From Chitinophagales bacterium (GTDB lineage: Bacteria > Bacteroidota > Bacteroidia > Chitinophagales > BACL12), in NCBI GenBank assembly GCA_044227505.1, contig JBGAWP010000001.1, positions 26,731 through 90,730 on the forward strand: a DNA stretch of 64,000 nt, read 5' to 3'. The first letter of the stretch is position 1; every line of letters starts with the position of its first letter. This document shows positions 12,317 through 45,612 of the stretch, piece by piece. The notes beneath the pieces were generated by a model, which searched no databases, was not told where the DNA came from, and saw only the letters and a program-made list of their open reading frames with translations. Made by a program: the position numbers and the translations under genes.

Positions 12317-12330
12317 GTCAATCGTTTGGT

Positions 12331-14468: not shown

Positions 14469-14550
14469 TTGTTAATTTGTTAGTTTGTTAATTTGATAAT
14501 TGATTGTCTGCATTGTACTTTGTTCTTCGCATTATACTTTGTTCTTCACA
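14469..14550. repeat. AT-rich octamer array abutting the start codon, followed by a 20-bp tandem duplication
   Basis: ATTTGTTA / GTTTGTTA / ATTTGATA units run from 14469 to about 14508, directly upstream of the ATG at 14468 on the minus strand. CATTGTACTTTGTTCTTCGC and CATTATACTTTGTTCTTCAC stand in tandem at 14511-14550. Confidence 0.85.
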
Positions 14551-14586
14551 TTTAACTTTTCTCACCTTCCATTTTTTAATTTAACT

Positions 14587-14626
14587 GCCATGAATGCAAG
14601 AATTTTTTTATTCGTGCATTCGTGGC
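14587..14626 (-). repeat. Long imperfect hairpin between the FAD oxidoreductase and 4Fe-4S genes
   Basis: GCCATGAATGCAAGAAT pairs with ATTCGTGCATTCGTGGC, a stem of about 16-17 bp with 2 mismatches around an A/T-only loop. It begins 10 nt after the stop at 14636. It could be an intercistronic terminator, attenuator or RNA-stability element. Confidence 0.6.
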
Positions 14627-14635
14627 AACCCTTTT

Positions 14636-15970
14636 TTATTTAAATATCATTTGCATCAAACTCTTTTTTGATTTTAAAATTATTTGCTTTTTGGGATTAC
14701 GAGTATTCCATGCATGTATAATTTCCTCTTCAAATTGCGCGTAAAATTCAGGATCAAAATTTGCGGCTTTAAGATGAGTGAGAACGTATTCTACTGTTCT
14801 TTTTTCTTGCAGCCAGGTATTAAATAGTTCGTGGCGTAATCTAATTCCGAAATTATTGATACCGATAAAAAGATGATCTTCTTTTTTGTAAACGAGATGT
14901 ATACATTTTTTTGAATCCGGGTGTTCCCAATAAAATTCTTCTTCTCCTTCGCGCAATTTATTTAATACCGTTCCATAGGTTTGATATTCAATGTCTAAAA
15001 ATTTTGCGGAATTAAACCAATAACCGGGATTGTAATTTGTTTCCACACCGATCATATTTAATGCTGCACATTCACCCTGAATTTTGCCGGTGTACCACAC
15101 TTGTTCCACAGTTTTTCTATCCGGCAGTGCCTCCTGAAACTGAGCGCAATCGCCCGCTGCGTATACATCCTGTGTGTTTGTTTGCATTTGGGAGTTGATT
15201 ATAACGCCTCTGTCGCATTTAATACCACTCTCATTTAAAAACGTTATATTGGGAGAAACTCCGGCGGTTAATCCAACCACTTCGCATTTAATTTCTTCTC
15301 CCTTATCCGTAATTACACTTTTAACTCTGCCATTGCTGTCGCCGATAATTTCTTTCATAGAAGTATTTAATCGCAGATCGAATCCATATTCGCGGATATG
15401 TTTTGATATCATGGTTGATTCCTGTTCGGGGAGAACATTATTCCAATAATTACTTTCCCGCACTAAAATGGTAACAGGATAATGACGCGAGTGCAGCATT
15501 TCTGCCATTTCAATTCCGATCAATCCTCCGCCAACAATTACCGCGCGGGTAATTCCGTTTTTCGTATTTTCTTCCAGCGCCAAAAGATCCTGGTATGAGT
15601 ACATTCCCTGCACACCTTTAAGGTCTTGTCCGGGCCAGCCAAATTTATTTGATTTTGCACCCGTAGCAATTAATAATTTATCGTAAGCAAGTGGTTTTCC
15701 TTTTTCAAATTCCACATTTTTATTTTCGACATCAATATTTTTAACCCAGGCTTTTTTGAGTTTAATTCTATTCTTTTCCCAAAACCAATTTTCGTAAGGT
15801 TGAGTATGTTCAAATTTCATGTGACCCATATACACATACATGAGTGCTGTTCTGCTAAAAAAATAATCGGTTTCGCCCGAGATCACCGTAATTTCATGAT
15901 CCGAATTTTTCCGGATGGTTCTCGCCGCAGTAATGCCCGTGATGCCGTTTCCTATGATTACGATATGCAT
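14636..15970 (-). CDS. NAD(P)/FAD-dependent pyridine nucleotide-disulfide oxidoreductase family protein
   Basis: The N-terminal Rossmann motif is IVIIGNGITG. A second dinucleotide fold is VIVGGGLIGIE, and AAGDCA follows. It is 444 aa. Confidence 0.8.
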   Translation of the reverse strand: MHIVIIGNGITGITAARTIRKNSDHEITVISGETDYFFSRTALMYVYMGHMKFEHTQPYENWFWEKNRIKLKKAWVKNIDVENKNVEFEKGKPLAYDKLLIATGAKSNKFGWPGQDLKGVQGMYSYQDLLALEENTKNGITRAVIVGGGLIGIEMAEMLHSRHYPVTILVRESNYWNNVLPEQESTMISKHIREYGFDLRLNTSMKEIIGDSNGRVKSVITDKGEEIKCEVVGLTAGVSPNITFLNESGIKCDRGVIINSQMQTNTQDVYAAGDCAQFQEALPDRKTVEQVWYTGKIQGECAALNMIGVETNYNPGYWFNSAKFLDIEYQTYGTVLNKLREGEEEFYWEHPDSKKCIHLVYKKEDHLFIGINNFGIRLRHELFNTWLQEKRTVEYVLTHLKAANFDPEFYAQFEEEIIHAWNTRNPKKQIILKSKKSLMQMIFK

Positions 15971-21269: not shown

Positions 21270-22034
21270 TCACTTTCCCACCTCATTCAACCTCCAATCA
21301 TACTCCATAAACTCAATCTTTGTCTCTTCACCTATTTTTACTTTTGAATATGTATTTATAAACTCTTTCAAACTTCCGTTTTTAGTAAAATCGCCTGTGA
21401 ACCAGTTGAAAATAGAGCTTACCTGTACGCTGTCGGTGGTGATTTTATTTCGGGTGGGATCGTTGATGAAATCTGTTGCCTGTTGCTGGAGTTGTTTCTC
21501 TAATTTATTTGCGGTGTAGGCTTCATTTAATAATTTGGGACAACTATAACTTGCGCAATTAACGGCGAAATGAATTCTAGGTTCATTCATTTTTCGGAGG
21601 ATATTGTGTTCAATGTTGTTGAGGTCCAGGATCTGCCCTTCAATATTTATAAATTTAATATCCCACACAGAATTAATAAATGCAACTCCGGATTGAATGT
21701 CTTTAATGCTTGCAAGCGGATAATTTCGAATAATTAATTGAATGGTGTATGCATTATAGGCATTGATCCAATAAGCTAAAATTTCTTCCCGGCTCCAGGT
21801 TTTTTCATTGGGGTAATTTGTTTCTATTAATTGCAGGTAAGAATTTAGTTTCAGACTATCAGCAATAAATTTTTCATAATTTACAAATCCCGCTTCATTC
21901 ACATTGTTCTTGAGGAGACCATTAAAAATATCATGACTTATAGGTTTGGAATCGGTTTGAATGCCTGAGATCGTTTTGCAGGAAACCACAACAGTTATAA
22001 GAAAAAGTATAAAAAGACCAGATAATAAGCGCAT
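21270..22034 (-). CDS. DUF547 domain-containing protein
   Basis: Motifs AYWINAYNAYTIQLII, LDLNNIEHNILR and EPRIHFAVNCASYSCPKL match the DUF547 signature. Confidence 0.8.
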   Translation of the reverse strand: MRLLSGLFILFLITVVVSCKTISGIQTDSKPISHDIFNGLLKNNVNEAGFVNYEKFIADSLKLNSYLQLIETNYPNEKTWSREEILAYWINAYNAYTIQLIIRNYPLASIKDIQSGVAFINSVWDIKFINIEGQILDLNNIEHNILRKMNEPRIHFAVNCASYSCPKLLNEAYTANKLEKQLQQQATDFINDPTRNKITTDSVQVSSIFNWFTGDFTKNGSLKEFINTYSKVKIGEETKIEFMEYDWRLNEVGK

Positions 22035-25050: not shown

Positions 25051-25199
25051 CCTTCGAATCCACAGAGATTCCCTTCGGGTAACACTGCGGGGACACTTGG
25101 GATGCAGAACTCAGAACCCAGAACTCAGAACTCATCCTCCGAATCTACAGCGTTTCTTTATCCTACTTCCTATTTCCTACTTCCTATTTCCCATTCCCC
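25051..25199. repeat. Composite intergenic repeat: CGAATCCACAGAG hairpin module plus GAACTCA and CCTACTT/CCTATTT heptamer arrays
   Basis: CCTTCGAATCCACAGAGATTCCCTTCGGGTAACACTGCGGGGACACTTGGG lies at 25051-25101. Four GAACTCA/GAACCCA heptamers lie at 25107-25134. CCTACTT/CCTATTT units lie at 25162-25199. Confidence 0.9.
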
Positions 25200-26333
25200 C
25201 TAATCAATCCCCTGTGTCATTTTACGCACAATTTTTAGTTCACTGAAAAACTCCTTAGCAATAATCCGGAAGAATGCATACACCGGCATAGCGGCGATCA
25301 TTCCGGGAACTCCAGCGAGGGAACCAAATACTAAAACCACAAAAAACACTTCTAATGGATGTGCTTTAATTGAATTGGAATAAATAATGGGTTGCGAAAT
25401 AAAATTATCGATGAGTTGTACTCCCTGGAAGAGAATAAATAATTGAATCAGCATTGGAGTGATATCAAAATTGGGATCCACACTTAAATTCGTGGTAATG
25501 CCGATGAACATACCGAATAACATTCCGATAATTGGTCCGATATAGGGAATGATATTGATGATACCCGCAAATAAAGCGATGAGCCAGCTGTTTGGCCCGA
25601 AACCGAGTGCCAGTAAGCCTCCTGCAATTAAAATAAATACAATAAGCGATTGAATGATCAACCCCACAAAATATCGTGTGAGATATTTTTTACTCGATTG
25701 TAAAATGCGTTTTGCGTTGGGTTCAAATTTTGTAGGAGTGAGTATCATCACGATATTATAAAATAATTTTTCATCCCGCAAAAAGAAAAATGAAATAAAA
25801 GTGATGGAAAATAAAGCAACAATTATATTGCCGAGTCCGCCCAAAATATTATTAAAAATATGGGTGATGGATGTAACATTTATCCAGTTCTTTAAATTAT
25901 CATTAATGATCTGATCAACAGATTGTTGCGGTACATTGGGATCCTGAAAACGCACTACCAAAGAGTCGAGGGCTTCCATTTGTGCTTGTAATCCCATCGC
26001 AACTTGTTCAGTATTAATATTGCTGATATTATTTGTTTGTTCAACAACCAATGGTGTAAACATTTTAACTATTCCGAAAATAATTCCGAATAAAACAGAT
26101 ATGGTAATTAAAGAAGAAAGTGCATTAGGGATCTTAAATTTTCCAATCTTAAAATGTTCTAGAAAATCGCAAATGGGTTTTCCGATAATGGAAATAATTG
26201 CGGCGATGATAAAATAAAATAATATTGTTGTGATCTGCAAGATCAGCCAAACAACTCCAAATACTAAAGCAAGGGTGATGAGTATTAATAAAGTTGTTCG
26301 AATGATATTGTTGTTGGACCAAGGTGTGGGCAT
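25200..26333 (-). CDS. AI-2E family transporter (PerM-like permease)
   Basis: It is a multi-TM protein with GIINIIPYIGPIIG, typical of the family. I chose the ATG at 26333 (MPTPWSNNN...). The track start at 26414 is a TTG whose extra 27 codons are read out of the intergenic repeat. Confidence 0.8.
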   Translation of the reverse strand: MPTPWSNNNIIRTTLLILITLALVFGVVWLILQITTILFYFIIAAIISIIGKPICDFLEHFKIGKFKIPNALSSLITISVLFGIIFGIVKMFTPLVVEQTNNISNINTEQVAMGLQAQMEALDSLVVRFQDPNVPQQSVDQIINDNLKNWINVTSITHIFNNILGGLGNIIVALFSITFISFFFLRDEKLFYNIVMILTPTKFEPNAKRILQSSKKYLTRYFVGLIIQSLIVFILIAGGLLALGFGPNSWLIALFAGIINIIPYIGPIIGMLFGMFIGITTNLSVDPNFDITPMLIQLFILFQGVQLIDNFISQPIIYSNSIKAHPLEVFFVVLVFGSLAGVPGMIAAMPVYAFFRIIAKEFFSELKIVRKMTQGID

Positions 26334-26490
26334 TGGATAAATTTTCGTGAAGATAAGTCTTTTGAAGATTCGAAGGGAGAGGAATCGAACCTGCTTGCTA
26401 ACAGTGTCGGGCAAGGGGAGAAGGGGAAGGGTCTAAGGGGGAGTAGGAAGGAATGGGTGGGGAAGGGTTGAAAAGTATTAATCTTATAAA

Positions 26491-26810
26491 AATATCGAAT
26501 AAAGAACAAGGAATAAAGAACATTGATCGGATCGACAGCCCGGGAGATATTGCTCCGCAGTGAATCGGGATTAATATCCAATAATAATCAAAAAATAAAA
26601 AATATTAATCGGACTGACAACCCTGAAGATTTTTCTCGGTAATAAATCCTTATAATATCGAATAAAGAACAAGGAATAAAGAACATTAAACGGATCGACA
26701 GCCCGGGAGATTTTCCTCCGCGGTGAACCAGGAGGAATATCAAATAATAATCAAAAAATAAAAAATATTAATCGGATCTACAACCCGGAGTTTATTCCTC
26801 CGAAGTGAAC
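26491..26810 (+). repeat. Tandem duplication of a 163-bp unit, each unit built from two related sub-elements of about 80 bp
   Basis: AATATCGAATAAAGAACAAGGAATAAAGAACATT starts at 26491 and again at 26654. Each unit contains two cores resembling ATTAATCGGATCGACANCCCGGAGATTTTCCTCCGNNGTGAAC. One core has an AATATCGAATAAAGAAC... leader and the other an AATAATAATCAAAAAATAAAAAAT leader. Confidence 0.9.
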
Positions 26811-26840: not shown

Positions 26841-26935
26841 GCTCCGAATCCACAGAGTTCGCTGCGCGTAACACTGTGGGGAAACGCTTGGGGTTGGTGA
26901 ACTCAGAACCCTGAACTCAGAATTCAGAACAGAAC
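26841..26935. repeat. Second copy of the CGAATCCACAGAG hairpin module plus a GAACTCA heptamer array
   Basis: GCTCCGAATCCACAGAGTTCGCTGCGCGTAACACTGTGGGGAAACGCTTGGGG lies at 26841-26893. GAACTCAGAACCCTGAACTCAGAATTCAGAAC lies at 26899-26935. The module order matches 25051-25134. Confidence 0.9.
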
Positions 26936-26970: not shown

Positions 26971-27945
26971 CTAACAACATCCACCCCCATCAAAAAAAAA
27001 GGTAGAGCCGGAAATAAAAATATCATTTCTATTTAACGCGGCAAGATTACCTGCTGTTTTATCGCAAACGGCTAATGGTTGATTTGGAGTTAGAGTATGA
27101 CCTTTGTGGTCGTCGAAATATTCTGCATCACCAAAATATATTGCAGTTTTACCAGTGAATACACAAGGGCCATCAGTGGGCATTGGATCTTTAATGGCAC
27201 ACACTTCTGCACTTTCGATGTAAATTAATTCAGAAGTTTCGTAATGTAAAGGATCTAAAATTCTATAAGGCCTTCTTGCACGCACTTCTATTGTGCCAAA
27301 ACCAACATCGGTAATTCTATTTATATATTCCTGTAAAGGAAGTGAACCACTCAGACATAAAGCGCGTAATTTTTCATCATCTCGTAAATTTTCCGGAATA
27401 GTTTGTTCGCAGGTTGGATCGCTCATTACCAAACGACCGTGTTTTTTTAATATGCGATACATTTCTCCCAATGCTTTTTGCAGATCTTCTTCTCTGAAGA
27501 TATTAAATAGACAATTTTGAGCGGCAATATCAACTGAATTATCTTCCACAGGTAAATTAAATGCATCACCTTTGCGCAAATCAACAAATTCTCTTTTGAA
27601 CCAGGGATTTAATTTTTCTGCTTCCAATAAATTTTCGTGACAGGCTTCCAGCATTTCATCAACAACATCAACACCAATTACCCCACCTTTTTTACGGGAG
27701 AAATACGCGAATTGCAATAATTCCATTCCGCCGCCAACACCAACATACATTATAGTGGGTTCATTAACAAGATCTCTGGGATTAACTGTGCTCCCACAAC
27801 CATAATTCATCTGCAACATTTTTTGCGGAATTACCAGTCCCGGTAATTGCCAAATAGGAGTAGTGGTGCAACACAATCCTTCCTGCGGATTTTCTGCTGC
27901 TTCTTTGTAAACGTTTCTTGTTGTTTCTAAATAACCTGTCGACAT
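26971..27945 (-). CDS. arsM: ArsM-like SAM-dependent (arsenite) methyltransferase
   Basis: The N-terminal Cys pair is EGLCCTTTP. The SAM-binding motif is MYVGVGGGME. The C-terminus is GGGCC. It is the last gene of a tightly packed run with an ArsS-like radical SAM gene. Confidence 0.7.
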   Translation of the reverse strand: MSTGYLETTRNVYKEAAENPQEGLCCTTTPIWQLPGLVIPQKMLQMNYGCGSTVNPRDLVNEPTIMYVGVGGGMELLQFAYFSRKKGGVIGVDVVDEMLEACHENLLEAEKLNPWFKREFVDLRKGDAFNLPVEDNSVDIAAQNCLFNIFREEDLQKALGEMYRILKKHGRLVMSDPTCEQTIPENLRDDEKLRALCLSGSLPLQEYINRITDVGFGTIEVRARRPYRILDPLHYETSELIYIESAEVCAIKDPMPTDGPCVFTGKTAIYFGDAEYFDDHKGHTLTPNQPLAVCDKTAGNLAALNRNDIFISGSTFFFDGGGCC

Positions 27946-27962
27946 GTTTATTTATTTTGGTA

Positions 27963-29045
27963 TTAAATAATATTATTTGATATAACATAAATGAGTGCAG
28001 AAACAAGAGCTGCAATTGGCAAAGTGAGTACCCATGAGCCCACTATTTTACCTATCATTTTATAATCTGCTTTTTTATTCACCACGCCAATTCCGAATAT
28101 TCCTCCTACTGAAACATGTGTGGTGGAAACCGGTAATCCGCTTGCACTGGCGGTCCAGACTAACACAGCTGTTATTAAATTCGAAGTAAATCCTTGCCCG
28201 GAATTCATATAAGTAATTTTTTTACTCATGGTCATGGCTACTTTTTTTGCATTTAACAACCCTCCAATTGCCATAACAATTGCAACAATAATGATCATCC
28301 ATGGAACATTTAAAAAACTTACTAATAATAACAATCCTGCAATTTTAGGTGCATCGTTCATTCCTCTTGCAAATCCAACGGCGCCAGCGGATAAAAAATG
28401 TAATCCGTCCAATATTTTTTGTGCGCTTATACCAACAATATTACCGTGATAACTTTCGCGGTAATCGTTGCTAATTGAAATTGTGGATGCGGCAATATTA
28501 TTTGTATCAGATAATGGTTTATCCACTGTAAGATGTGTTTGTTTATCTATTTTGAGCAGAAGGCGAACCTGTCTGAAAATAAAATATAAAATGATACTTG
28601 ATGCACAGGCAATAAAGGGACTCAGTAATAATGGTTTGAGAAATACATCTCCTAATTGTGTAAAATTGAGTTCATTACCCACAGCCATAAATCCTGCACC
28701 AACCAATGCTCCTACAATTGCATGTGTAGTGGAGATAGGAATACCGATTCTGGTTGCTAAAAATACCGTTGTAGCAGCGCCAAGTGCAACAGCAATAGCA
28801 AGAGAAGGGTCTTTTAATGCTTCATCGGGTATTAATCCTTTTCCGGAAAAATTTTTCATTAATCCCTGTGCTATATAAATTGCAAACAAACAGCCTGCAA
28901 GCGTGGTAATTGTACCCCAATTAATTGCTTTTTTGTAATCGGTTGTTCCGCTTCCAAAAAGAGTAGAAACACCTTTAAAATTATCGTTTGCTCCATTGGA
29001 AAATGCCAGGAAACAAGCTGCCAATAAAATGATAATTGTTATCAC
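27963..29045 (-). CDS. PiT (PHO4) family inorganic phosphate/anion transporter
   Basis: The N-terminal motif is SNGANDNFKGV, and the internal repeat motif is ARGMNDAPKIAG. It has about 10 TM helices. Its GTG start overlaps the stop of the upstream DUF2064 gene (GTGA). Confidence 0.8.
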   Translation of the reverse strand: MITIIILLAACFLAFSNGANDNFKGVSTLFGSGTTDYKKAINWGTITTLAGCLFAIYIAQGLMKNFSGKGLIPDEALKDPSLAIAVALGAATTVFLATRIGIPISTTHAIVGALVGAGFMAVGNELNFTQLGDVFLKPLLLSPFIACASSIILYFIFRQVRLLLKIDKQTHLTVDKPLSDTNNIAASTISISNDYRESYHGNIVGISAQKILDGLHFLSAGAVGFARGMNDAPKIAGLLLLVSFLNVPWMIIIVAIVMAIGGLLNAKKVAMTMSKKITYMNSGQGFTSNLITAVLVWTASASGLPVSTTHVSVGGIFGIGVVNKKADYKMIGKIVGSWVLTLPIAALVSALIYVISNNII

Positions 29046-29653
29046 GCTATCACATTTTTTAGATCAGGAAATAAGTTTAGGTCTTCAATAGTATCGATAT
29101 CGGTTAATGTTTCCAGTAGGAATAATTTTCCATTATTATTTTCAATTTCAGTTTTAGATTCTTCAAAAAGATGTTCAGTGCTCCATTGTTTATTTTGTAA
29201 AAGCCAACGATTCCACTTTTTCATGCCAATTAAATAATAACCACCGTCCGTTGCGGGACCAATTACAAAGTCGTGATCTTGTAAGGCCAGGAAAGCTTTA
29301 TTAATATGTTCGGGAGTAAGTGCATAACAATCTGCACCTATCATCACCACTTCTTTGTATTCGTTTTTAAAAGGAATGGAAAAACCATAATCCATGCGCA
29401 CGCCCAGATCTCCGCTGCATTGAACATATTTTCTATAATTGGCATTATCAAAAATGTCATTTCTTTCTACCAGGTCAGAATAAAAGATGTATTTATCAGC
29501 ATCAATATCACGGGTGATCATTTGTGTGTGCCGCAATAAATTCATGTATATATCAAATGCCATTTCCTCACCCGCATCTTTTGCCAAACGTGTTTTTACC
29601 TTTCCTTTTACAGGATTTTTCAACATTATTACCAGTGCTTTTCTGTTGGACAT
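29042..29653 (-). CDS. DUF2064 family transferase-like protein (rSAM/arsenosugar-cluster-associated type)
   Basis: ALVIMLKNPVKGKVKTRLA, IGADCYALTPEHI, VIGPATDGGYYLIG and QWSTEHL are DUF2064 hallmarks. Confidence 0.75.
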   Translation of the reverse strand: MSNRKALVIMLKNPVKGKVKTRLAKDAGEEMAFDIYMNLLRHTQMITRDIDADKYIFYSDLVERNDIFDNANYRKYVQCSGDLGVRMDYGFSIPFKNEYKEVVMIGADCYALTPEHINKAFLALQDHDFVIGPATDGGYYLIGMKKWNRWLLQNKQWSTEHLFEESKTEIENNNGKLFLLETLTDIDTIEDLNLFPDLKNVIA

Positions 29654-29691
29654 TTTATTTTTTTATTGCTCAATGGTTAATATTAATTCAC

Positions 29692-30750
29692 TTAAGCAAC
29701 GGTTCCTCCGCAACTGCTGCCACTTCCTGCTGTGCATCCAAAACAATGTTGATTTAACACTATTTCTCTGTTGTTTAATTTTTCCAGATCCCAATTGCTG
29801 ATATGATTTGGAGCGCCATGGTTTACTTTTAATCCCAACATCTGATTAAAATCACAATCATAAATTGTTCCTTCCCAACCTATTGAAATGGTATTTCTGC
29901 ACATTACATTTTGAGCAGCAACGGGATTAAATGCCTCAATTAATTGTTGCATATACGTTTCATAATTTCCGCTCTGAATTAAATAATCGAGAAATCTGCT
30001 TATAGGCATATTTGTAATACAGAATAGACTATTAAATTCGATATTGTGCTGGCGTTTTAATTCTTTTTTAAATTGCGCCTCCAGCGTTTCCTGAGAGCCG
30101 GGTAAAAATGCTCCACTTGGATTATACACTAAATTTAAAATCAAACCTGAACCCGGTTTTCCATAACCTACTTCATTCAACATTTGTAATGCTTTAATAC
30201 TATCTTCAAATACACCATCTCCGCGTTGTGCATCTGTTCTTGATTTATTATAAAATGGCAGTGAAGAAATTACCTCCACTTTGTGATCGGCAAAAAATTG
30301 TGGCAGGTCGTGATATTTTTTATTTGCCATGATAATGGTGAGATTACAACGCACCATTGTTTTTCTTCCGAGTTTTGAAATTTCTTCTACGAACCATCTG
30401 AAATCGGGATTCATTTCCGGGGCACCACCGGTAAGATCAACAGTTGGAATATCGGTCTGAGCCAAAACATCCAAACACTGTTGCATGGTTTCTCTCGTCA
30501 TAATTTCCTGCCGGTCGGGACCAGCATCCACATGGCAATGCGCACAAGTTTGATTACACATATAACCAACATTCACCTGAAATATTTCAGTTTTTGTAGG
30601 CTTCAATGGAAATAAATTAATACTGTTTAATTTATCATCAAACCGTTCAAAATCCGCAGTTGCAATTTCATGTGTTTCCAACACCTTCAGCTGATAATCA
30701 TTATCGGCTAATTTATGATGTTGGGCATGTAATGATTTTGTTGTCTTCAT
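29692..30750 (-). CDS. arsS: ArsS-type radical SAM / Cys-rich domain protein (arsenosugar-family biosynthesis)
   Basis: The radical SAM motif is CNQTCAHC. The C-terminal Cys-rich tail is CRNTISIGWEGTIYDCDFN...CFGCTAGSGSSCGGTVA, with Cys at the position where some family members carry Sec. I prefer the ATG at 30750 over the TTG at 30765. Confidence 0.8.
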   Translation of the reverse strand: MKTTKSLHAQHHKLADNDYQLKVLETHEIATADFERFDDKLNSINLFPLKPTKTEIFQVNVGYMCNQTCAHCHVDAGPDRQEIMTRETMQQCLDVLAQTDIPTVDLTGGAPEMNPDFRWFVEEISKLGRKTMVRCNLTIIMANKKYHDLPQFFADHKVEVISSLPFYNKSRTDAQRGDGVFEDSIKALQMLNEVGYGKPGSGLILNLVYNPSGAFLPGSQETLEAQFKKELKRQHNIEFNSLFCITNMPISRFLDYLIQSGNYETYMQQLIEAFNPVAAQNVMCRNTISIGWEGTIYDCDFNQMLGLKVNHGAPNHISNWDLEKLNNREIVLNQHCFGCTAGSGSSCGGTVA

Positions 30751-30760
30751 ATTATAAATT

Positions 30761-30922
30761 GTCAATAGTCATTAGTCAGGAGTCATTAGTCAGGAGTGAG
30801 GACGTAAATTTTAAATCGGACGTAAACTCATTACTCATAACTCATTTGGAGAATCGTAAGCAATAATCCGGCTCGGAACATACTCACCACTCACCACTCA
30901 CCACTCACCACTTCCCACTCAC
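30761..30922. repeat. Heptamer-phased degenerate arrays filling the ArsS / AhpD-like intergenic spacer
   Basis: GTCAATA GTCATTA GTCAGGA GTCATTA GTCAGGA GTGAGGA lie at 30761-30802. GGACGTAAA occurs twice. AACTCAT TACTCAT AACTCAT lie around 30825-30846. TACTCAC followed by (CACTCAC)3 CACTTCC CACTCAC lie at 30881-30922, ending at the stop codon of the upstream gene. Confidence 0.95.
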
Positions 30923-31260
30923 TACATCGCTATCTCCTTAAATTTCGCCATCATCTGCGTTCCATGCACCAAACTCGCTCCACCGCGAATTGCTGCGGCA
31001 ACGTGAATTGCTTCCATCATTTGTTCTTCATCACAACCTTTTGCCATTGTGTCTTGTGTATAAGCATCAATACAATAGGGACATTGAATTGCATGAGAAA
31101 CTGCCAATGCAATTAAACTTTTTTCGCGTGCTGTTAATGCACCTTCGGCGAAAACTTTTCCGTAATAATCAAAAAATGCTTTTCCTAATTCGGCATCCCA
31201 GTTACTGATCTTTCCGAAATTTTTAAGGTCTTTAGGGTCGTAGTATGTTGAACGTTCCAT
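30922..31260 (-). CDS. AhpD/carboxymuconolactone-decarboxylase-fold peroxidase-like protein (CxxC form)
   Basis: It has 112 aa. LTAREKSLIALAVSHAIQCPYCIDAY carries the AhpD-core CxxC. This small family accompanies ArsS-type radical SAM genes. Confidence 0.75.
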   Translation of the reverse strand: MERSTYYDPKDLKNFGKISNWDAELGKAFFDYYGKVFAEGALTAREKSLIALAVSHAIQCPYCIDAYTQDTMAKGCDEEQMMEAIHVAAAIRGGASLVHGTQMMAKFKEIAM

Positions 31261-31375
31261 TATAAAATTTGTATTGTTAAATGAATTAATAAATTAAATA
31301 GAGCTGTAATTATTTGTAATGGATCTTACTTCAAAACAGAAGCAAATTACAAATGTTCAAATCTGAAAATTTGAA

Positions 31376-32080
31376 TCAAACAGCAGGGGGACCTCTTAAT
31401 AAGGAGTACTTACGAAAGAAATTGGAAAGTGGATTGCTGAAAAATGTTAAACAAAAACTGTTAACAGAAGCCAGAATTGAAGCTAATTTTTTTCTAAAAG
31501 AAAAAAGTAAAAATGGGTTTGAAATTGTTTTGAGCAGATCAGATCTGTGATCCAAATCACTTTTTTGTTGTGTAACAATAAATTCTGCAGAAACGGAATC
31601 CAAATAATAAATAAATGCAGAACTTACCTGATCGGTTCCCCAGGGAATATTGTTAAATAATTCCGTTCTTAAAAAATGTTGGTTAAGTCCGATAAGATAT
31701 AATCCACCATCTGATGCCGGACCGATAACCACTTCCTTTAGCTGTAACTTTTCTGCTGCAAATACAAGGTCAGCCGGAGTTAGTGTAGGACAATCATTTC
31801 CGATGGCGATCACATTTTCAAACCCAAGTTGAAATATATCGTTAAATGCATTATTCAGTCGTTCTGCAAAAGAATTTCCGGTTTGCAGATCAGTGTTTAT
31901 TGTAAAACAAGGAAGCCCACTGTCACGCGCAATTTTTTCGGTGTGGCTGATGAGATTTTTTGCAATTAAAAGATTTGCATGAAAAGAATGCGCTTCTGTG
32001 AAGTCTTTAGCAATTGCTTCCTCTTCCGCAGAGCGCGTGAATAGGAGCAGAGCTGTATTTTTAACCTCTTTGAGATGCAT
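31376..32080 (-). CDS. Second DUF2064 family transferase-like paralogue
   Basis: Motifs are ALLLFTRSAEEE, IGNDCPTLTPADL, VIGPASDGGLYLIGL and IPWGTDQV. The last approximately 50 codons are low-complexity, so the true 3' end is uncertain. Confidence 0.65.
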   Translation of the reverse strand: MHLKEVKNTALLLFTRSAEEEAIAKDFTEAHSFHANLLIAKNLISHTEKIARDSGLPCFTINTDLQTGNSFAERLNNAFNDIFQLGFENVIAIGNDCPTLTPADLVFAAEKLQLKEVVIGPASDGGLYLIGLNQHFLRTELFNNIPWGTDQVSSAFIYYLDSVSAEFIVTQQKSDLDHRSDLLKTISNPFLLFSFRKKLASILASVNSFCLTFFSNPLSNFFRKYSLLRGPPAV

Positions 32081-32156: not shown

Positions 32157-32720
32157 CTAACGTTTCTTTTGAATGCTGCTTTCCAGCCAAACAACTGCTC
32201 TTTTTATGTAATATTCCTTATCTGCTTTTTGTTTTTTTATCAGTTTCCAAATGGCAGGGTGCATTTCCGGACGTTTGCAAAAATCTTCCACCAAAACAAG
32301 TGATAATCGCCTGTGCCACATATTTTTTGAGTTGGATAACTTTTCTGCCAAATCAAAAACTTCTTTAGTTCGGATCTTATTGATCGATTTTAAACTTTGC
32401 ATGCCAAGTGTGTCGCAAACTGCCCAATTGTCAATACCATCGGCATATTTTTCTACAAGGCTAATTGCCTTTTCGGGATCCTGTTTAGCTATCAGCCGAA
32501 TTATTTTAGCGGCGAGTATTTTTTCTTCATATGCCCCTGAGCGCCATAGCTCTTCAACAAGATCAAAACCGCCTTCTTTCATTTCTTTCGCCAATTCATT
32601 GATCACAGGCATTCTCACACCATAAGCACCTTTGGCGCCGGGAGCCACAATTTTTAGTTGTTCAATTCTGTCAGGATGGCCGTTAGCCTTTAATACTTTT
32701 TTAATTTCTGTCAGCGACAT
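32157..32720 (-). CDS. DNA alkylation repair (AlkD-like HEAT repeat) family protein
   Basis: GAYGVRMPVINELAKE...EEKILAAKIIRLIA...IDNWAVCDTL matches the AlkD-like family pattern. The ATG at 32720 overlaps the upstream gene by 20 nt. The track start at 32741 is a TTG. Confidence 0.7.
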   Translation of the reverse strand: MSLTEIKKVLKANGHPDRIEQLKIVAPGAKGAYGVRMPVINELAKEMKEGGFDLVEELWRSGAYEEKILAAKIIRLIAKQDPEKAISLVEKYADGIDNWAVCDTLGMQSLKSINKIRTKEVFDLAEKLSNSKNMWHRRLSLVLVEDFCKRPEMHPAIWKLIKKQKADKEYYIKRAVVWLESSIQKKR

Positions 32721-33537
32721 AATTATTACAATAATTTTCAAATAATGGTATCAATAATTTTGTGATATTGCCAGGTGCGCCGTTCGCGATCATTTGATCT
32801 TCAATTTTTACTACCGGCATAATGTTTTTTGTTGTACTGGAAATAAATACTTCATCAGCTTCAAATAATTCTTTAATGGAAATATCCTTTTCAATCACCA
32901 TAAATTGTTCTTTTAAACAATGCATTACATGATGTCGTGTCACACCTTTTAATATGTTTTTATCCGGTGTGTAAATTAAGCCTCCTTTAATAATAAAAAT
33001 ATTACATCGTGAACATTCACGAACAATATTGTCGAAATAAAAAAGAATATCCTCGGAATTGTTTTCCAACATTCTGTCATACTCTCTTAAAGAACCCAAA
33101 TAAAATGTAGTTTTATATTCAGGAAATGGTTTTGCAAATTCATGAAGAATGAGTGTTATTCCATCATTAAACATTTTCTGATCATACTCTTTAAAAATAT
33201 CCTGATAAACTGTTAGAATAGCGGTTAATTTATTGTCAACCATTCTTGCAGAAATGATGCATTTGAAATAGGAATTATTTAAATTATTTTCTTTTTGTAA
33301 GGTCTCCAATATATTTTTAATATCATCCATTTGTGCTTTGGAATGTAGACGCAGCAATGATTGTGAGTGTTCTAATCGCGATAAATGTTCCTTTAAAAAT
33401 GGAATGGTGCCATTTCTTTCCCGGCAATAGTCAAACACAGCAAATCCGCGTTCAAAACCAAGATCATCGGTTCCGATGCTGATCTTATCCTTAGGTAAAT
33501 AAATACCATCCCGATAGGCTAATAATTGTTGTATCAT
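32701..33537 (-). CDS. Class IV (fold type IV) aminotransferase / aminodeoxychorismate-lyase-like protein
   Basis: DLGFERGFAVFDY, NIFIIKGGLIYTP, ILKGVTRHHV and ADEVFISSTTKNIMPV follow the class IV PLP-enzyme pattern. Confidence 0.7.
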   Translation of the reverse strand: MIQQLLAYRDGIYLPKDKISIGTDDLGFERGFAVFDYCRERNGTIPFLKEHLSRLEHSQSLLRLHSKAQMDDIKNILETLQKENNLNNSYFKCIISARMVDNKLTAILTVYQDIFKEYDQKMFNDGITLILHEFAKPFPEYKTTFYLGSLREYDRMLENNSEDILFYFDNIVRECSRCNIFIIKGGLIYTPDKNILKGVTRHHVMHCLKEQFMVIEKDISIKELFEADEVFISSTTKNIMPVVKIEDQMIANGAPGNITKLLIPLFENYCNNYVADRN

Positions 33538-34547: not shown

Positions 34548-37277
34548 ATGGACAAGTTTTCATACATAGCAAACGCGGAACCTCAATATATAGAGAGTTT
34601 ATATCAGAATTATAAATCCGACCCGGCAAAAATTGATGGGGAATGGAAAAAGTTTTTCGAAGGATTTGACTTCGCGCAACAAAATTTTTCTTCTAACGGA
34701 CATTACGAAAATATCAGCTCATCAAATTTGGCGGCGGAATTAAAGGTGTACAATGCAATTTTGGCCTACCGCGAAAAGGGTCATTTGATCTCCAAAACAA
34801 ATCCCCTGAAACCGCGCAAAGACAGAAATGCACAGTTGAAATTGGAGCAATTGGGATTTAGGGAAAATGATCTGACCAAAAAATTTGGCGCAGGTGTGGC
34901 AGTGGGTATGGAAAATGCCACTTTGCAGGAAATTTTAGCGCATCTCGAAAATTGTTATTGCAGAAGTATCGGTTTTGAATACGACTATATTATCGATCCC
35001 ATTGAAAAAAAATGGTTTCAGGATAAAATAGAAATTAACGGAAAAAATATCACTTTTTCTGTTGATCAAAAAAAACGAATTCTAAAAAAATTAAATGATA
35101 CTGTTGTTTTTGAACAGTTTCTCGATAAAAAATATGTAGGTCAAAAAAGGTTTTCATTGGAGGGGGGAGAAACAACGATCCCGGCATTAGATGCAATTAT
35201 TACAAAGGGTGCGGCAATGGGAGTGGAGGAATTCGTTTTCGGAATGGCTCACCGTGGGAGATTAAATGTACTGGCAAACATACTTGGAAAAACATACGAA
35301 CAAATATTTAATGAATTTGAAGGAACAGCAATTCCGGACACTACGATGGGTGATGGCGATGTGAAATATCATCTTGGTTATTCATCGCAGGTGGAAACAA
35401 ATTCAGGAAAAGAAGTACATTTAAAATTAACACCAAATCCATCTCATTTGGAAGCAGTTAATCCCGTAATGCAGGGATTTGTAAGAGCTAAAACAGATGT
35501 TTTATACAATGAGGATTGGGATAAAATAATGCCTATAACTATTCACGGTGATGCTGCCATTGCGGGACAAGGAGTTGTTTACGAAGTATTACAAATGAGC
35601 AATCTGAAAGGTTACAGAGTTGGTGGAACTTTACACTTTGTAATTAATAATCAGATAGGATTTACAACTGATTTTGATGATGCTCGCACTAGTAATTATT
35701 GCACGAGTTATGCTGCAACAATTCAGGCTCCGGTAATTCATGTAAATGGTGATGATGCGGAAGCTGTAGTATTTGCCTGTGAATTAGCAGTGGAGTATCG
35801 CCAGGAATTTAATAAGGATATTTTTATTGATATGTTGTGTTACAGAAAACACGGACATAATGAAGGGGATGACCCGAAATACACACAACCTGCTCTATAT
35901 AAATTGATTGAAAATAAATTAAATCCACGAGAAATTTATGTGCAGAAATTATTGGCGAGTCACGATATTGATAAACAACTCGCAACAGAAATGGAAAAAG
36001 ATTTCTGGAATGAATTACAAAGCAGATTAGATCTCACCAAACAAAAACCACTTAAATATCAATATCAGGCTCCGGAAGAGGCGTGGAGAAAATTGAAAAA
36101 GATAATTGATATCGCAGTAGACTTTAGTAATACGCCGGAAACAAAAGTAGACAAAGAAAAAATTAAACAGGTTACGGATAATATGTTTAAAGTACCTGAA
36201 GGTTTTGTGAAGTTGAAAAAAATTGAAAAGTTATTCGAAACAAATAAAAAACTTTTAGCCGAAAATAAAATTGACTGGGCCCTAGCTGAATTAATTGCTT
36301 ACGGAACTATTTTATTGGATGGACAAGATGTTCGCATGAGCGGACAAGATGTAAGAAGAGGTACTTTTAGTCACCGTCATGCAGTATTGCGTGAAGAAAA
36401 TACAAATGAGGAATATATTCGTTTAAATCACCTCGCTGAAAAACAAGGTAAATTCAGAATTTATAATTCTTTATTGAGCGAATTTGGAGTGTTGGGATTT
36501 GAATTTGGTTACAGTCTTGCCTGCCCCGACCCATTGGTAATATGGGAAGCGCAATTCGGTGATTTTAATAATGGAGCGCAAACAATTATTGATCAGTTTA
36601 TATCAGCAAGTGTGAGCAAGTGGCAGCGTATGAGCGGACTGGTTATGTTGTTGCCTCATGGATATGAGGGGCAGGGCCCGGAACATTCCAGTGCTCGTTT
36701 AGAGCGATTTTTACAATTATGTGCCGAAGGAAATTTAATTGTTGCGAATATTACTACCCCAGCAAATTTTTTCCACATATTAAGACGACAACTTGCCTTT
36801 GATTTTCGCAGGCCTCTGATCATCATGAGTCCGAAAAGTTTGTTGCGTCACCCTTTGGTGCAATCTCCATTAACTGAATTATCTGAAGGTAAATTTGAAC
36901 CGCTGATAGGAGATGAGTATGCTGATAAGAAAAAAGTAAAACGCGTTATTTTATGCAGTGGAAAAATTTATTACGATCTGTATGAATATCAACAAAAAAA
37001 TGAAAGAAAGGACATCGCAATTTTACGGGTGGAACAATTATATCCTTTTCCGATGACCAGATTAAAAGAAGAATTAAATAAATATCCCGAGGCAGAATTA
37101 ATGTGGACGCAGGAAGAACCGAGAAATATGGGAGCATGGTTTTATATCTGGAATTTAATGGGCACTATGATCAAACAAAAGGTGAGCAGAAAATCAAGTG
37201 CATCACCGGCAACAGGTTTTGCGAAGATTCATGCTCAGGAGCAAGCGGATATTGTGGAGCAGAGTTTTAAGTTGTGA
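34548..37277 (+). CDS. sucA: 2-oxoglutarate dehydrogenase E1 component
   Basis: It has 909 aa. The N-terminus is SYIANAEPQYIESLYQNYKSDP. The ThDP-enzyme core includes GMAHRGRLNVLANILGK and HGDAAIAGQGVVYE. The C-terminal part includes WEAQFGDFNNGAQ. Confidence 0.95.
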   Translation: MDKFSYIANAEPQYIESLYQNYKSDPAKIDGEWKKFFEGFDFAQQNFSSNGHYENISSSNLAAELKVYNAILAYREKGHLISKTNPLKPRKDRNAQLKLEQLGFRENDLTKKFGAGVAVGMENATLQEILAHLENCYCRSIGFEYDYIIDPIEKKWFQDKIEINGKNITFSVDQKKRILKKLNDTVVFEQFLDKKYVGQKRFSLEGGETTIPALDAIITKGAAMGVEEFVFGMAHRGRLNVLANILGKTYEQIFNEFEGTAIPDTTMGDGDVKYHLGYSSQVETNSGKEVHLKLTPNPSHLEAVNPVMQGFVRAKTDVLYNEDWDKIMPITIHGDAAIAGQGVVYEVLQMSNLKGYRVGGTLHFVINNQIGFTTDFDDARTSNYCTSYAATIQAPVIHVNGDDAEAVVFACELAVEYRQEFNKDIFIDMLCYRKHGHNEGDDPKYTQPALYKLIENKLNPREIYVQKLLASHDIDKQLATEMEKDFWNELQSRLDLTKQKPLKYQYQAPEEAWRKLKKIIDIAVDFSNTPETKVDKEKIKQVTDNMFKVPEGFVKLKKIEKLFETNKKLLAENKIDWALAELIAYGTILLDGQDVRMSGQDVRRGTFSHRHAVLREENTNEEYIRLNHLAEKQGKFRIYNSLLSEFGVLGFEFGYSLACPDPLVIWEAQFGDFNNGAQTIIDQFISASVSKWQRMSGLVMLLPHGYEGQGPEHSSARLERFLQLCAEGNLIVANITTPANFFHILRRQLAFDFRRPLIIMSPKSLLRHPLVQSPLTELSEGKFEPLIGDEYADKKKVKRVILCSGKIYYDLYEYQQKNERKDIAILRVEQLYPFPMTRLKEELNKYPEAELMWTQEEPRNMGAWFYIWNLMGTMIKQKVSRKSSASPATGFAKIHAQEQADIVEQSFKL

Positions 37278-37287
37278 GGGAGGAGTG

Positions 37288-37418
37288 GCAGTCGCAGTCG
37301 CAGTCGCAGTCGCAGTCGCAGTCGCAGTCGCAGTCGCAGTCGCAGTCGCAGTCGCAGTCGCAGTCGCAGTCGCAGTCGCAGTCGCAGTCGCAGTCGCAGT
37401 CGCAGTCGCAGTCGCAGT
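37288..37418. repeat. Perfect hexanucleotide microsatellite (GCAGTC)21 plus a partial unit
   Basis: I counted it directly: 126 bp of uninterrupted GCAGTC at 37288-37413, then GCAGT. It starts 11 nt after the sucA stop and ends 64 nt before the sucB start. Confidence 0.98.
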
Positions 37419-45573: not shown

Positions 45574-45612
45574 ATGAATATCTTCTTAAATTTGCATCTT
45601 CAATAAAAAACC

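Follow-up and report, generated by a model that had tools for sequence, protein, structure and literature searches.

A PiT-family transporter linked to ArsS in an arsenosugar-type gene cluster of a Chitinophagales bacterium

A transporter of the PiT/PHO4 family is conserved beside ArsS, a radical SAM enzyme of arsenosugar-type gene clusters, and constitutes a distinct, previously unremarked subfamily that is linked to ArsS across very different bacteria. The case considered here is a six-gene block within a 64,000-nt stretch of DNA (the window) from a Chitinophagales bacterium (GCA_044227505.1, contig JBGAWP010000001.1, positions 26,731–90,730, forward strand). With moderate confidence, the block is read as a compact arsenosugar-type organoarsenical operon of Chitinophagales-like Bacteroidota, in which PiT is a co-inherited carrier, favoured for arsenate uptake.

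Composition of the six-gene block

Positions 26971–32080 of the window hold six co-oriented ORFs on the minus strand, in the order DUF2064b, AhpD-like, ArsS, DUF2064a, PiT and ArsM (Table 1). An earlier, sequence-only reading had placed six genes at these coordinates and assigned them to an ArsS/ArsM arsenosugar-type neighbourhood; all six ORFs are present, every motif it quoted is found in the translations, and four of the proteins exceed curated NCBIfam cut-offs. Assignment was by profile scores against those cut-offs (TIGR and NF models) and Pfam, and family membership was established for five of the six proteins. Since all six frames are free of internal stops and the HMM matches reach the profile ends, the positions that are selenocysteine in homologues are cysteine here, as had been proposed.

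The GTG start of PiT overlaps the DUF2064a stop by 4 nt (GTGA, 29042–29045), which agrees with the translational coupling suggested earlier. Spacers measure 38 nt between ArsS and DUF2064a, 17 nt between PiT and ArsM, and 115 nt between DUF2064b and AhpD. Co-transcription of the block is predicted solely from gene orientation and spacing, and the 115-nt and 171-nt spacers could harbor internal promoters. The block is kept whole in relatives L001, L082, L131 and L132 (PiT identity of 68–93%), with differing upstream neighbours, and DUF2064a and PiT are tightly coupled there as well, with a 4-nt overlap in L131 and a 2-nt gap in L132.

Table 1. Features of the block and its surroundings in the window.
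Feature	Coordinates	Strand	Remarks
DUF2064 "b" (Db)	31376..32080	-	234 aa; first gene of the conserved block
AhpD-fold CxxC protein	30922..31260	-	112 aa; TIGR04169
AhpD–ArsS spacer	30751..30921	-	171 nt; heptanucleotide tandem arrays (TRF)
ArsS radical SAM	29692..30750	-	352 aa from ATG; TIGR04167
DUF2064 "a" (Da)	29042..29653	-	203 aa; TIGR04282
PiT/PHO4-family permease	27963..29045	-	360 aa, GTG start; PF01384
ArsM	26971..27945	-	324 aa; NF038099; last gene of the block
AI-2E family transporter	25200..26414	-	PF01594, 132.2 bits
DUF547 gene	21270..22034	-	PF04784, 101.3 bits; about 5 kb beyond arsM

ArsS bears out its earlier assignment with 458 bits for TIGR04167 (cut-off 300), along with 186.4 bits for PF12345 and 37.2 bits for PF04055. 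Its translation carries the CNQTCAHC motif and a Cys-rich C-terminal tail, CFGCTAGSGSSCGGTVA; the mechanically called ORF starts at a TTG at 30765, beyond the ATG. ArsM scores 556.3 bits for NF038099 (cut-off 400) and contains GLCCTTTP, VGVGGG and a C-terminal GGGCC, and of 81 loci, 30 have an ArsM homologue no more than 7 kb from ArsS. The AhpD-like protein, with a CPYC motif, is the arsenosugar-associated, peroxidase-like protein of TIGR04169 (178.5 bits, cut-off 120; PF02627, 71.8 bits), and its homologue adjoins ArsS in 72 of the 81 loci.

The two DUF2064 paralogues differ markedly. DUF2064a is a canonical, CofC-like TIGR04282 protein (187.7 bits against a cut-off of 134; PF09837, 100.7 bits) and a putative nucleotidyl- or glycosyl-transferase; it keeps the NPVKGKVKTRLA loop and matches PDB 3CGX over its full length (74 bits). 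GT2 (p = 3.6e-5) and PNP (p = 0.002) tend to accompany its clade, which counts for the logic of a pathway downstream of ArsS. DUF2064b scores below the same cut-off (109.5 bits, with the match limited to residues 54–182; PF09837, 90.4 bits), does not have the N-terminal GKVKTRLA nucleotide-binding loop, and matches 3CGX over residues 66–182 only. It is a divergent, TIGR04282-like member of a separate conserved clade, which is found in about 14 loci, usually directly upstream of AhpD, and in which 16 residues are deleted and the loop is degenerate.

The sequence-only reading had noted that a GT2-type partner was missing from the cluster, and no TIGR04283 glycosyltransferase is found in the cluster or across the whole 64-kb window, where the sole small GT2 (12331–13023) reaches 40 bits (cut-off 182). 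Its further suggestion, that the second DUF2064 takes the place of GT2, was rejected: DUF2064b belongs to its own clade upstream of AhpD, GT2 is not significantly excluded (2/9 versus 15/38, Fisher p = 0.45), and both genes occur together in L007 and L079.

Other features around the block are of less certain relevance. The AhpD–ArsS spacer, which has no Rfam match, is built from the units GGTGAGT, AATGAGT and CCTGACT/AATGACT. Elsewhere in the window, at least 10 further intergenic sites have similar heptamer arrays, as does the corresponding spacer of L001; the L082 spacer is only about 48 nt long. Such arrays are probably a genome-wide type of intergenic repeat and not a cluster-specific signal. 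In the window and in L081, L082, L131 and L132, arsM is followed by an AI-2E gene of equal orientation, which was not found in the distant clusters; it is possibly a seventh member, or mere conserved synteny. The DUF547 gene is of uncertain membership, with only 25% identity to the cluster-type representative; DUF547 lies inside the clusters of two Flavobacteriaceae (L128 and L129) and was counted at 10 of the 47 ArsS loci that are well flanked.

The PiT subfamily and its linkage to ArsS

Linkage was counted by a pattern-based scan of metagenomic PiT-relative loci for which 1.2 kb or more of upstream sequence was available (n = 31). ArsS is present in 22 of these loci, no more than 300 nt away in 14 of the 22, and some arsenosugar gene is present in 25 of the 31. 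Eleven of 21 PiT lineages (70% identity clusters) are ArsS-linked, with GC contents of 31–73%; adjacency is kept from 93% down to 34% PiT identity, and PiT and ArsS identities climb together (Spearman 0.84, n = 26). Cultured carriers are Lacinutrix sp. Hel_I_90 and Aquimarina sediminis, the two Flavobacteriaceae mentioned above, with the gene order AhpD, ArsS, rhodanese, DUF2064, PNP, ArsM, PiT, FA hydroxylase, DUF547, GT2. The earlier proposal would have fallen had PiT not been conserved beside ArsS in relatives, and the 22 loci, the cultured Flavobacteriaceae and the high-GC lineages show that it is. No ArsS was found within 4–7 kb of subfamily members L088, L091, L106 and L109. Seen from ArsS, PiT looks rare: among the 80 nearest ArsS loci 4 have it, and among 47 well-flanked ones 1 does; it is a minority accessory, and the pathway therefore does not need it.

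The rarity of PiT among ArsS neighbourhoods would suit a housekeeping phosphate (or sulfate) permease that sits in the cluster by chance, with an operon that would be the same without it. So would the database names of its relatives, all plain "inorganic phosphate transporter", and its best NCBIfam matches, CysP and PitA. This explanation is nonetheless strongly disfavoured and very improbable, given the adjacency across such ranges of identity and GC content, the start/stop codon overlap, and scores far under both cut-offs (88 bits against 400 for CysP; 70 against 800 for PitA). A further argument against it is an invariant signature (Lys24, His216, Arg227, Lys234, Asn289), present in 133–148 of the top 150 50%-cluster representatives, that distinguishes the subfamily from TmPiT and E. 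coli PitA.

Binding pocket and candidate substrates

The protein covers the full-length PF01384 profile (220.5 bits, cut-off 33.7) and retains the duplicated GxND and STTH motifs. When its residues are mapped onto the TmPiT structure (6L85), to which it matches at only 81 bits, all eight Pi-2Na ligands are kept (D22, S105, T106, T107, D258, S345, T346 and T347). The third-sodium Asp is lost (D327 in TmPiT, Asn289 here). Across the subfamily, several pocket-lining positions differ from TmPiT, with H254 replaced by Arg227 and both N25 and N261 by Lys, and the Na_fore site is largely gone (D327 to N, Q243 to H, S247 to A or S). The carrier probably dispenses with the third sodium site that SLC20-type PiTs have. 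Candidate substrates are arsenate, phosphate or a methylarsenate.

Arsenic genes surround PiT in distant loci as well. In L116 the order is ArsM, ArsR, ArsS, PiT (ArsR, NF033788, 87 bits), and a thioredoxin-type ArsC domain adjoins PiT in three lineages, in one of which it forms an ArsC::MTAP fusion (TIGR02691, 138 bits; TIGR01694, 309 bits). No ArsB-like gene was seen in any fetched locus. To our knowledge, the characterised transporters of ars operons are all exporters. Deliberate import of a toxic ion is counter-intuitive, and an arsenate importer under ArsR control would form a positive-feedback loop; both points count against arsenate uptake by PiT.

The phosphate core, fully kept from TmPiT, also fits an arsenate-proof phosphate importer that is co-expressed with the arsenic genes and does not feed the pathway, securing phosphate while arsenate competes at ordinary transporters or the cell shuts those down. 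TmPiT, the nearest PiT with a solved structure, binds arsenate ~100-fold more weakly than phosphate (PMC7413737), which likewise counts against arsenate uptake by PiT and in favour of such an importer. Arsenic induction would be sensible for a protective phosphate carrier, since ArsR lies inside ArsM-ArsR-ArsS-PiT operons, and arsenic islands contain arsenic-responsive pst and pho phosphate-uptake genes (PMC3834237, PMC7965956). However, the linkage is specific to ArsS, the next gene in 14 of the 31 loci, and not to classical arsRBC/acr3, whereas general protection predicts spread over ordinary ars operons. The changes at Arg227, Lys24, Lys234 and Asn289 would also go unexplained, and a protective importer is, on balance, the less likely account, at roughly one chance in a handful.

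An altered, more basic pocket could instead suit another anion, such as methylarsonate or dimethylarsinate imported for reduction and use by ArsS, or dimethylarsinate exported as a by-product. In keeping with this, some PiT clusters have no ArsM within 7-kb flanks, namely L096–L098, which have an ArsC-like reductase domain, and L095, which holds only ArsS-PiT-DUF2064-GT2, although absence is judged there on those flanks only. ArsM directly adjoins PiT in the window and flavobacterial clusters, so that inorganic arsenic would be enough as input. We know of no PiT family member that carries organo-oxyanions, and transport of methylated species is considered improbable.

Relation to known systems and proposed pathway

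The arsM-arsS arsenosugar genes of Synechocystis sp. PCC 6803, which later accounts attribute to Xue et al. 2019, with ArsS biochemistry by Cheng et al. 2021, are described there as co-transcribed (PMC12159101, PMC13598754, bioRxiv 2022.09.23.509062). As in that organism, both core enzymes are identified by curated HMMs, adjacent and co-oriented, and ArsS has a CX3CX2C motif and Cys-rich C-terminal tail. In contrast, the window cluster belongs to a heterotrophic Bacteroidota host, carries four genes beyond the core pair (AhpD-like, two DUF2064 and PiT) and is known from its genes alone. Compared with the NCBIfam arsenosugar neighbourhood (TIGR04167, TIGR04169, TIGR04282 and TIGR04283, plus NF038099 and the rhodanese NF045521), it has TIGR04167, TIGR04169, TIGR04282 and NF038099 above cut-offs but no TIGR04283, rhodanese or PNP, and it adds a sub-threshold DUF2064 and PiT, for neither of which there is a curated pathway model. 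The Flavobacteriaceae ten-gene cluster shares the same PiT subfamily (60–61% identity) beside ArsM, plus AhpD, ArsS and DUF2064a. It further has rhodanese, PNP, FA hydroxylase, DUF547 and a TIGR04283-type GT2, does not contain DUF2064b, and places PiT after ArsM, whereas PiT comes before ArsM in the window.

Among transporters, PiT shares its PF01384 fold family, at full length, with TmPiT/human SLC20 (6L85, PMC7413737) and E. coli PitA; its Asn in place of D327 recalls the Gln found there in the H+-coupled PitA. Unlike in this set, no DUF47/PhoU-like partner gene adjoins it. Arsenic islands (Li et al. 2013, PMC3834237) likewise link phosphate-type transport physically to arsenic metabolism genes, but they combine ABC-type Pst with arsenite oxidase and ars resistance, whereas the window pairs a secondary PiT carrier with a biosynthetic radical SAM enzyme. 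The Burkholderia gladioli arsQML arsinothricin cluster (PMC8552651) similarly has a radical SAM former of the C-As bond, ArsM and a dedicated permease. There, however, the radical SAM enzyme, ArsL, is non-canonical and transfers a 3-amino-3-carboxypropyl group; the permease, ArsQ, works in efflux and comes from another family, and the pathway ends in an amino-acid antibiotic. No paper on the pathway products in heterotrophic Bacteroidota was found in a literature search of incomplete coverage.

The ArsS family catalyses radical SAM adenosylation of dimethylarsenite to 5'-deoxy-5'-dimethylarsinoyl-adenosine (PMC13598754; bioRxiv 2022.09.23.509062). In the proposed pathway, ArsM would methylate As(III) to dimethylarsenite, and ArsS would employ a 5'-deoxyadenosyl radical, derived from SAM, in making 5'-deoxy-5'-dimethylarsinoyl-adenosine. 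We infer all chemistry beyond ArsS, as well as what DUF2064b does and what PiT carries and in which direction. A phosphorylase, housekeeping here and cluster-encoded elsewhere, would strip adenine, the arsenoribose would be activated or transferred by the CofC-like DUF2064a, and the AhpD-like CxxC protein may maintain the proper redox state of thiols or arsenic. No ArsC, ArsR, PNP or TIGR04283 gene is found in the 64-kb window, and several steps therefore rely on genes outside it. In the favoured reading, PiT would take up arsenate, which would be reduced and passed to ArsM; PiT would be a carrier of a tetrahedral oxyanion and a genuine, co-inherited component of the pathway.

Composition and surroundings of the cluster

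The cluster consists of six co-oriented minus-strand genes, and the positions and motifs that the sequence-only reading gave for them were recovered in the translations. Family calls followed NCBIfam curated cut-offs, which four of the cluster proteins pass. For instance, ArsS scores 458 bits on TIGR04167 (cut-off 300), a profile that it matches from position 2 to 302 of 303, and this bears out the family first proposed for it; it carries the radical SAM motif CX3CX2C (CNQTCAHC) and a C-terminal DUF3641 domain (PF12345, 186.4 bits). ArsM, encoded 1.7 kb from ArsS in the same operon, is of the arsenosugar type (NF038099, 556.3 bits against 400). The CPYC-containing AhpD-like protein, whose gene is the immediate upstream neighbor of ArsS, belongs to the arsenosugar-associated peroxidase-like family (TIGR04169, 178.5 bits against 120). 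The family numbers given in the sequence-only reading proved correct on profile scoring. Positions occupied by Sec in homologues are Cys here, as had been claimed, since all six genes are free of internal stops and the HMM matches extend to the profile ends; in ArsS, this Cys lies in the tail CFGCTAGSGSSCGGTVA.

Assignment of the cluster to the ArsS/ArsM organoarsenical pathway is well supported, and since the core neighborhood is already represented in NCBIfam names, it belongs to a known type. By family membership, ArsS is the predicted dimethylarsenite adenosylation enzyme. Conversion of DMAs(III) to 5'-deoxy-5'-dimethylarsinoyl-adenosine (DDMAA) by ArsS is known only for the Synechocystis enzyme (PMC13598754, bioRxiv 2022.09.23.509062), and arsM-arsS co-transcription is likewise described for Synechocystis (PMC12159101).

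Intergenic distances from DUF2064b to ArsM are, in order, 115, 171, 38, -4 (a GTGA overlap) and 17 nt. The GC content of the region is flat at ~36% and therefore gives no sign of a recent foreign origin. Upstream of DUF2064b lie three co-directional genes with HMM names that carry no arsenic connection: a Rv2578c-type radical SAM protein, a class IV aminotransferase and a DNA_alkylation protein. Because the block of a close relative (L132) is headed by DUF2064b, directly beside sucA, the functional unit is taken to start at this gene. The aminotransferase and DNA_alkylation ORFs overlap by 41 nt with a TTG start, and the latter probably starts at an ATG a few codons further downstream. On the other side, the next gene after arsM on the same strand encodes an AI-2E family transporter (PF01594), both in the window and in all close relatives (L081, L082, L131 and L132), an order not seen in distant clusters; this gene could encode a product exporter or reflect mere conserved synteny. 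A DUF547 gene lies 5 kb past arsM.

Searches for regulatory signals gave little. Between 26000 and 34800, Rfam at E<=1 returned only a spurious lncRNA match, with no riboswitch or leader. Scans for sigma-70 promoters (37 vs 36.3) and terminators (8 vs 5.7) did no better than on shuffled sequence. The Bacteroidota-type -7 box (TAnnTTTG) was seen only ahead of the radical SAM gene at 34478 and in none of the cluster spacers, which is weak evidence and carries no weight in the reading given here.

Heptanucleotide tandem arrays (GTGAGTG, AATGAGT, CAGAACT, TCCTATT and others), of 3-6 copies each, occur across intergenic regions; for example, GTGAGTGGTGAGTGGTGAGT with <=3 mismatches has 12 matches where 0 are expected. 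We take these arrays to resemble the STRR heptamer repeats of cyanobacteria. Those in the AhpD-ArsS spacer were considered as a cluster-specific signal, a reading rejected because these same arrays lie between many other genes of the window and L082 has only a short AhpD-ArsS spacer. The 556 nt that separate arsM from the AI-2E gene are taken up by an 82-nt repeat, which holds a small hairpin rich in GC (CGGGTTGTAGATCCG); in L082, L131 and L132, the two genes are just 60-126 nt apart. Finally, a nearly perfect hexanucleotide microsatellite directly follows a 909-aa ORF that looks like 2-oxoglutarate dehydrogenase E1.

Coordinates of features in the window and, where a locus is named, in loci from other genomes
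Feature	Position	Strand	Remark
DUF2064b	32080-31376	minus	first in transcription order
AhpD-like	31260-30922	minus	second in transcription order
ArsS	30750-29692	minus	third in transcription order
DUF2064a	29653-29042	minus	fourth in transcription order
PiT	29045-27963	minus	fifth in transcription order
ArsM	27945-26971	minus	sixth in transcription order
Class IV aminotransferase ORF	32701-33537	minus	
DNA_alkylation ORF	32157-32741	minus	
AI-2E transporter gene	25200-26414	minus	
DUF547 gene	21270-22034		
Oxidoreductase to large GT2 gene string	10838-15970		
AglJ-like GT2	12331-13023		best TIGR04283 score
909-aa ORF	34548-37277		
(AGTCGC) microsatellite	37284-37418		x 22.5, 99% match
82-nt repeat	26491-26810		x3.9 (or 163 nt x1.8, 91% match)
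Heptamer arrays	25105-25195, 26899-26930, 30761-30922, 45185-45211, 45537-45574, 55770-55973, 63757-63917		
ArsC::MTAP fusion ORF, L097	5667-6962		
Flavobacterial cluster, L128	4345-12547		
Flavobacterial cluster, L129	4270-13990		
Eroded cluster, L089	5443-9000		
PiT region, L091	6467-10572		

ArsS neighborhoods and the two DUF2064 paralogues

A scan with one genome per species yielded at least 598 ArsS loci, the 80 nearest of which are almost all from Bacteroidota; in one Bacteroidota MAG (L001), the nine-gene order is that of the window and ArsS is 96% identical. When neighboring ORFs were clustered and the clusters named by HMM, the ArsS neighborhood proved to be modular. Among 47 loci having at least 5 kb on either side, the components found were AhpD-like (45), DUF2064a-type or "Da" DUF2064 (22), ArsM (18), TIGR04283 GT2 (17), purine-nucleoside phosphorylase or PNP (13), DUF547 (10), DUF2064b-type or "Db" DUF2064 (9), rhodanese NF045521 (8), FA hydroxylase (7) and PiT (1).

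In these loci, GT2 is present in 15/22 Da-positive vs 2/25 Da-negative cases (p=3.6e-5), and Da also co-occurs with PNP (p=0.002). Both associations would fit a three-step logic after ArsS: phosphorolysis of the arseno-adenosine, nucleotidyl activation by a CofC-like DUF2064 protein, and transfer by GT2. The window itself encodes no TIGR04283 protein scoring at least 182 bits, the best being a small AglJ-like GT2 at 40.4 bits, and tblastn with a true TIGR04283 member found no further match; the reported absence of the GT2 partner from the cluster thus extends to the whole window. Neither PNP nor, by tblastn with E. coli and metagenome queries, ArsC, ArsR or ArsB was found in the window. The AglJ-like gene sits in a string, syntenic with L131 and L132, that also encodes a pyridine-nucleotide disulfide oxidoreductase, a NapH-like 4Fe-4S protein and a large processive GT2.

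The two DUF2064 proteins differ in kind. DUF2064a scores 187.7 bits on TIGR04282 (cut-off 134) over profile positions 1-189, and its N-terminal GKxKTRLA loop reads NPVKGKVKTRLA. DUF2064b reaches 109.5 bits, under the cut-off, and matches only positions 65-189, so that it is a member of Pfam DUF2064 (90.4 bits) and not a TIGR04282 equivalog; it has FTRSAEEEAIAK in place of the loop and a 16-residue deletion, both common to a clade of about 14 loci. The two clades come apart in an alignment of 48 DUF2064 proteins. Da retains the (K/R)NPxxGKVKTRLA loop typical of nucleotidyltransferases and matches structural-genomics entry 3CGX over its full length. Db has F(T/A)RSxxEExxxK at the loop position, retains IG(N/S)DCP, GPxxDGGxYLIGL and DxDxxxDL, and matches 3CGX only from residue 66 onward. 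In its roughly 14 loci, the Db gene is nearly always directly upstream of that for AhpD.

On this evidence, Db is a distinct, conserved paralogue, and with no loop it may act as a non-catalytic or acceptor-binding partner. The suggestion that the second DUF2064 stands in for the missing GT2 is not supported, since the two are not significantly exclusive (p=0.45), nor are Db and PNP (p=0.41), across the 47 loci. Db and GT2 occur together in L007 and L079; Db and Da do so in L004, L007, L009 and L079. Elsewhere Db is the sole DUF2064, with the order Db-AhpD-ArsS-ArsM in L019, L032 and L060. Annotation at present puts DUF2064b-type proteins under the same name as TIGR04282.

Linkage of the PiT to ArsS

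Across distant bacteria, ArsS and a recognizable PiT subfamily are inherited together, in some cases along with ArsR and ArsC. A metagenome scan with the window PiT, using back-translated patterns that sample relatives of this PiT and not the family at large, gave 47 confirmed relatives. ArsS occurs in 22 of the 31 loci having at least 1.2 kb upstream, and is the immediately preceding gene in 14 of the 22; at least one arsenosugar gene is present in 25 of the 31. Together with two cultured Flavobacteriaceae, these loci extend to other genomes the PiT-ArsS proximity first seen in the window. After collapse at 70% identity, 11 of 21 PiT lineages are ArsS-linked, with GC contents of 31-73% (distant loci being taken as different lineages by GC content), and for most of the unlinked lineages hardly any flanking sequence is available. 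The identities of PiT and ArsS are correlated (Spearman 0.84, n=26), as is partly expected for any two genes of the same genome. Mere coincidence is a less likely reason for the presence of the PiT in the cluster.

Gene order around the PiT varies with distance. In close relatives, with PiT identities of 68-93%, the block is still compact and the Da-PiT junction still tight. Marine Flavobacteriaceae contribute over 100 database clusters with ~60% identity to the window PiT. In the cultured Lacinutrix sp. Hel_I_90 (L128) and Aquimarina sediminis (L129), the PiT lies in a ten-gene, same-strand cluster: AhpD, ArsS, rhodanese, DUF2064, PNP, ArsM, PiT, FA hydroxylase, DUF547 and GT2. The FA_hydroxylase (OlsE-like, 88 bits) and 1-2 DUF547 genes between PiT and GT2 hint that the pathway may end in a lipid-linked product, an arsenolipid, and not in a free arsenosugar. 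The high-GC L116 and its relatives have the order ArsM, ArsR (87 bits on NF033788), ArsS (460 bits) and PiT. Another order among high-GC lineages, in L096-L098, is DUF547, ArsS, an ArsC::MTAP fusion, PiT, VTT protein, FAD oxidoreductase, DUF2064 and GT2. In L097, the single ORF of the fusion encodes both a thioredoxin-type arsenate reductase domain, at 138 bits on TIGR02691, and an MTAP-type nucleoside phosphorylase, at 309 bits on TIGR01694; in Rosetta-stone fashion, it would tie arsenate reduction to the step that strips adenine from the ArsS product. In L102 and L122, too, the PiT has an ArsC domain of the thioredoxin type beside it.

Two further loci show departures from these arrangements. 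In L089, from a close relative with an AI-2E protein 97% identical, the cluster has been eroded. It retains an intact DUF2064a but no ArsS, AhpD or ArsM; the PiT is interrupted after ~152 codons, where two minus-strand genes have been inserted, and the other strand carries a different Db-like gene. Strains thus vary in this cluster and can do without it. In L091, a MarR regulator gene precedes a member of the PiT subfamily that has no ArsS nearby; the flanks of this PiT hold a DUF547 gene in divergent orientation and convergent genes for a CNT nucleoside transporter and a CDP-alcohol phosphatidyltransferase.

Binding pocket and candidate role of the PiT

The window PiT matches PF01384 (PiT/PHO4, TC 2.A.20) over all 350 profile positions (220.5 bits), with intact duplicated signature motifs (D21 and D231, plus the triads S105-T107 and S307-T309). 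It scores far below the cut-offs for PitA (NF033774, 70 bits against 800) and the CysP sulfate permease (NF053884, 88.4 against 400). Its sole solved relative is TmPiT (PDB 6L85, 81 bits), in which D22/S105/T106/T107 and D258/S345/T346/T347 form the Pi-2Na site, T29/Q243/S247/D327 form a third sodium site (Na_fore), and H254 bridges the two Asp residues (PMC7413737). All eight Pi-2Na ligands are kept in the window PiT. In contrast to TmPiT and SLC20 proteins, it keeps only T28 of the Na_fore site, with N289 for D327, H216 for Q243 and A220 for S247 (A or S across the subfamily); R227 replaces H254, K24 replaces N25, and K234 replaces N261. K24, H216, R227, K234 and N289 are invariant in 44 of 44 locus-derived relatives. 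A library of 1.84 billion proteins gave 548 representatives at E<=1e-30, and in the best 150 of them the conservation is 143 for K24, 148 for R227, 147 for K234 and 133 for N289. At 50% identity, the clusters of the subfamily number at least 150 and probably about 550, all currently annotated as a generic "inorganic phosphate transporter".

The D327Q mutation abolishes phosphate binding in TmPiT, and the H+-coupled E. coli PitA differs from TmPiT in having Gln at this position. Binding by TmPiT is at 57 uM for phosphate and 6.3 mM for arsenate, and sulfate is not bound (PMC7413737). The window PiT would accordingly be a carrier of tetrahedral oxyanions with no third sodium site and with extra basic side chains lining its pocket, and its coupling, possibly its selectivity too, may be unlike that of SLC20-type PiTs.

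Arsenate uptake feeding the pathway is the favored candidate role, because the PiT is linked to the biosynthetic enzyme itself and not to resistance genes, and because an arsenate reductase domain has been recruited beside it in three lineages. The chief alternative is a phosphate supply that is proof against arsenate, for which the pst/pho genes of arsenic islands set a precedent (PMC3834237) and which agrees better with ArsR control. Handling of methylarsenates by the PiT is less likely. A further reading, in which the ArsS-linked subfamily as a whole would serve solely to import arsenate (or methylated arsenate), is rather doubtful at present.

A literature search on the PiT-ArsS link, on DUF2064 or TIGR04167 in arsenosugar papers, and on arsenosugars in Bacteroidota returned nothing relevant. 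Both the PiT subfamily, as a widespread co-inherited ArsS accessory, and the separate Db clade appear to be undescribed in the papers found or in curated models. Among the organic arsenic species of marine food webs, arsenosugars and arsenolipids dominate. To our knowledge, experiments support only two arsenosugar biosynthetic genes (arsM and arsS), and the pathway has not been linked to any transporter. The PiT is a concrete, cloneable candidate for arsenic entry, or for phosphate protection, during organoarsenical synthesis, with cultured, genetically approachable carriers in Lacinutrix and Aquimarina, and the steps that follow ArsS may run through a phosphorylase, DUF2064 and GT2, in that order. 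The question of detoxification versus purposeful use in arsenosugar formation is recast in testable form, as one of arsenate import by the PiT, and interest would rise if the carrier proves to import arsenic. Were dedicated import true, Lys24, Arg227, Lys234 and Asn289 would be determinants of altered anion selectivity and sodium-independent coupling. In many bacteria, marine Flavobacteriaceae and high-GC lineages among them, arsenic would then be actively acquired for arsenosugars or arsenolipids, and it would be an element used deliberately, more than a poison to detoxify.
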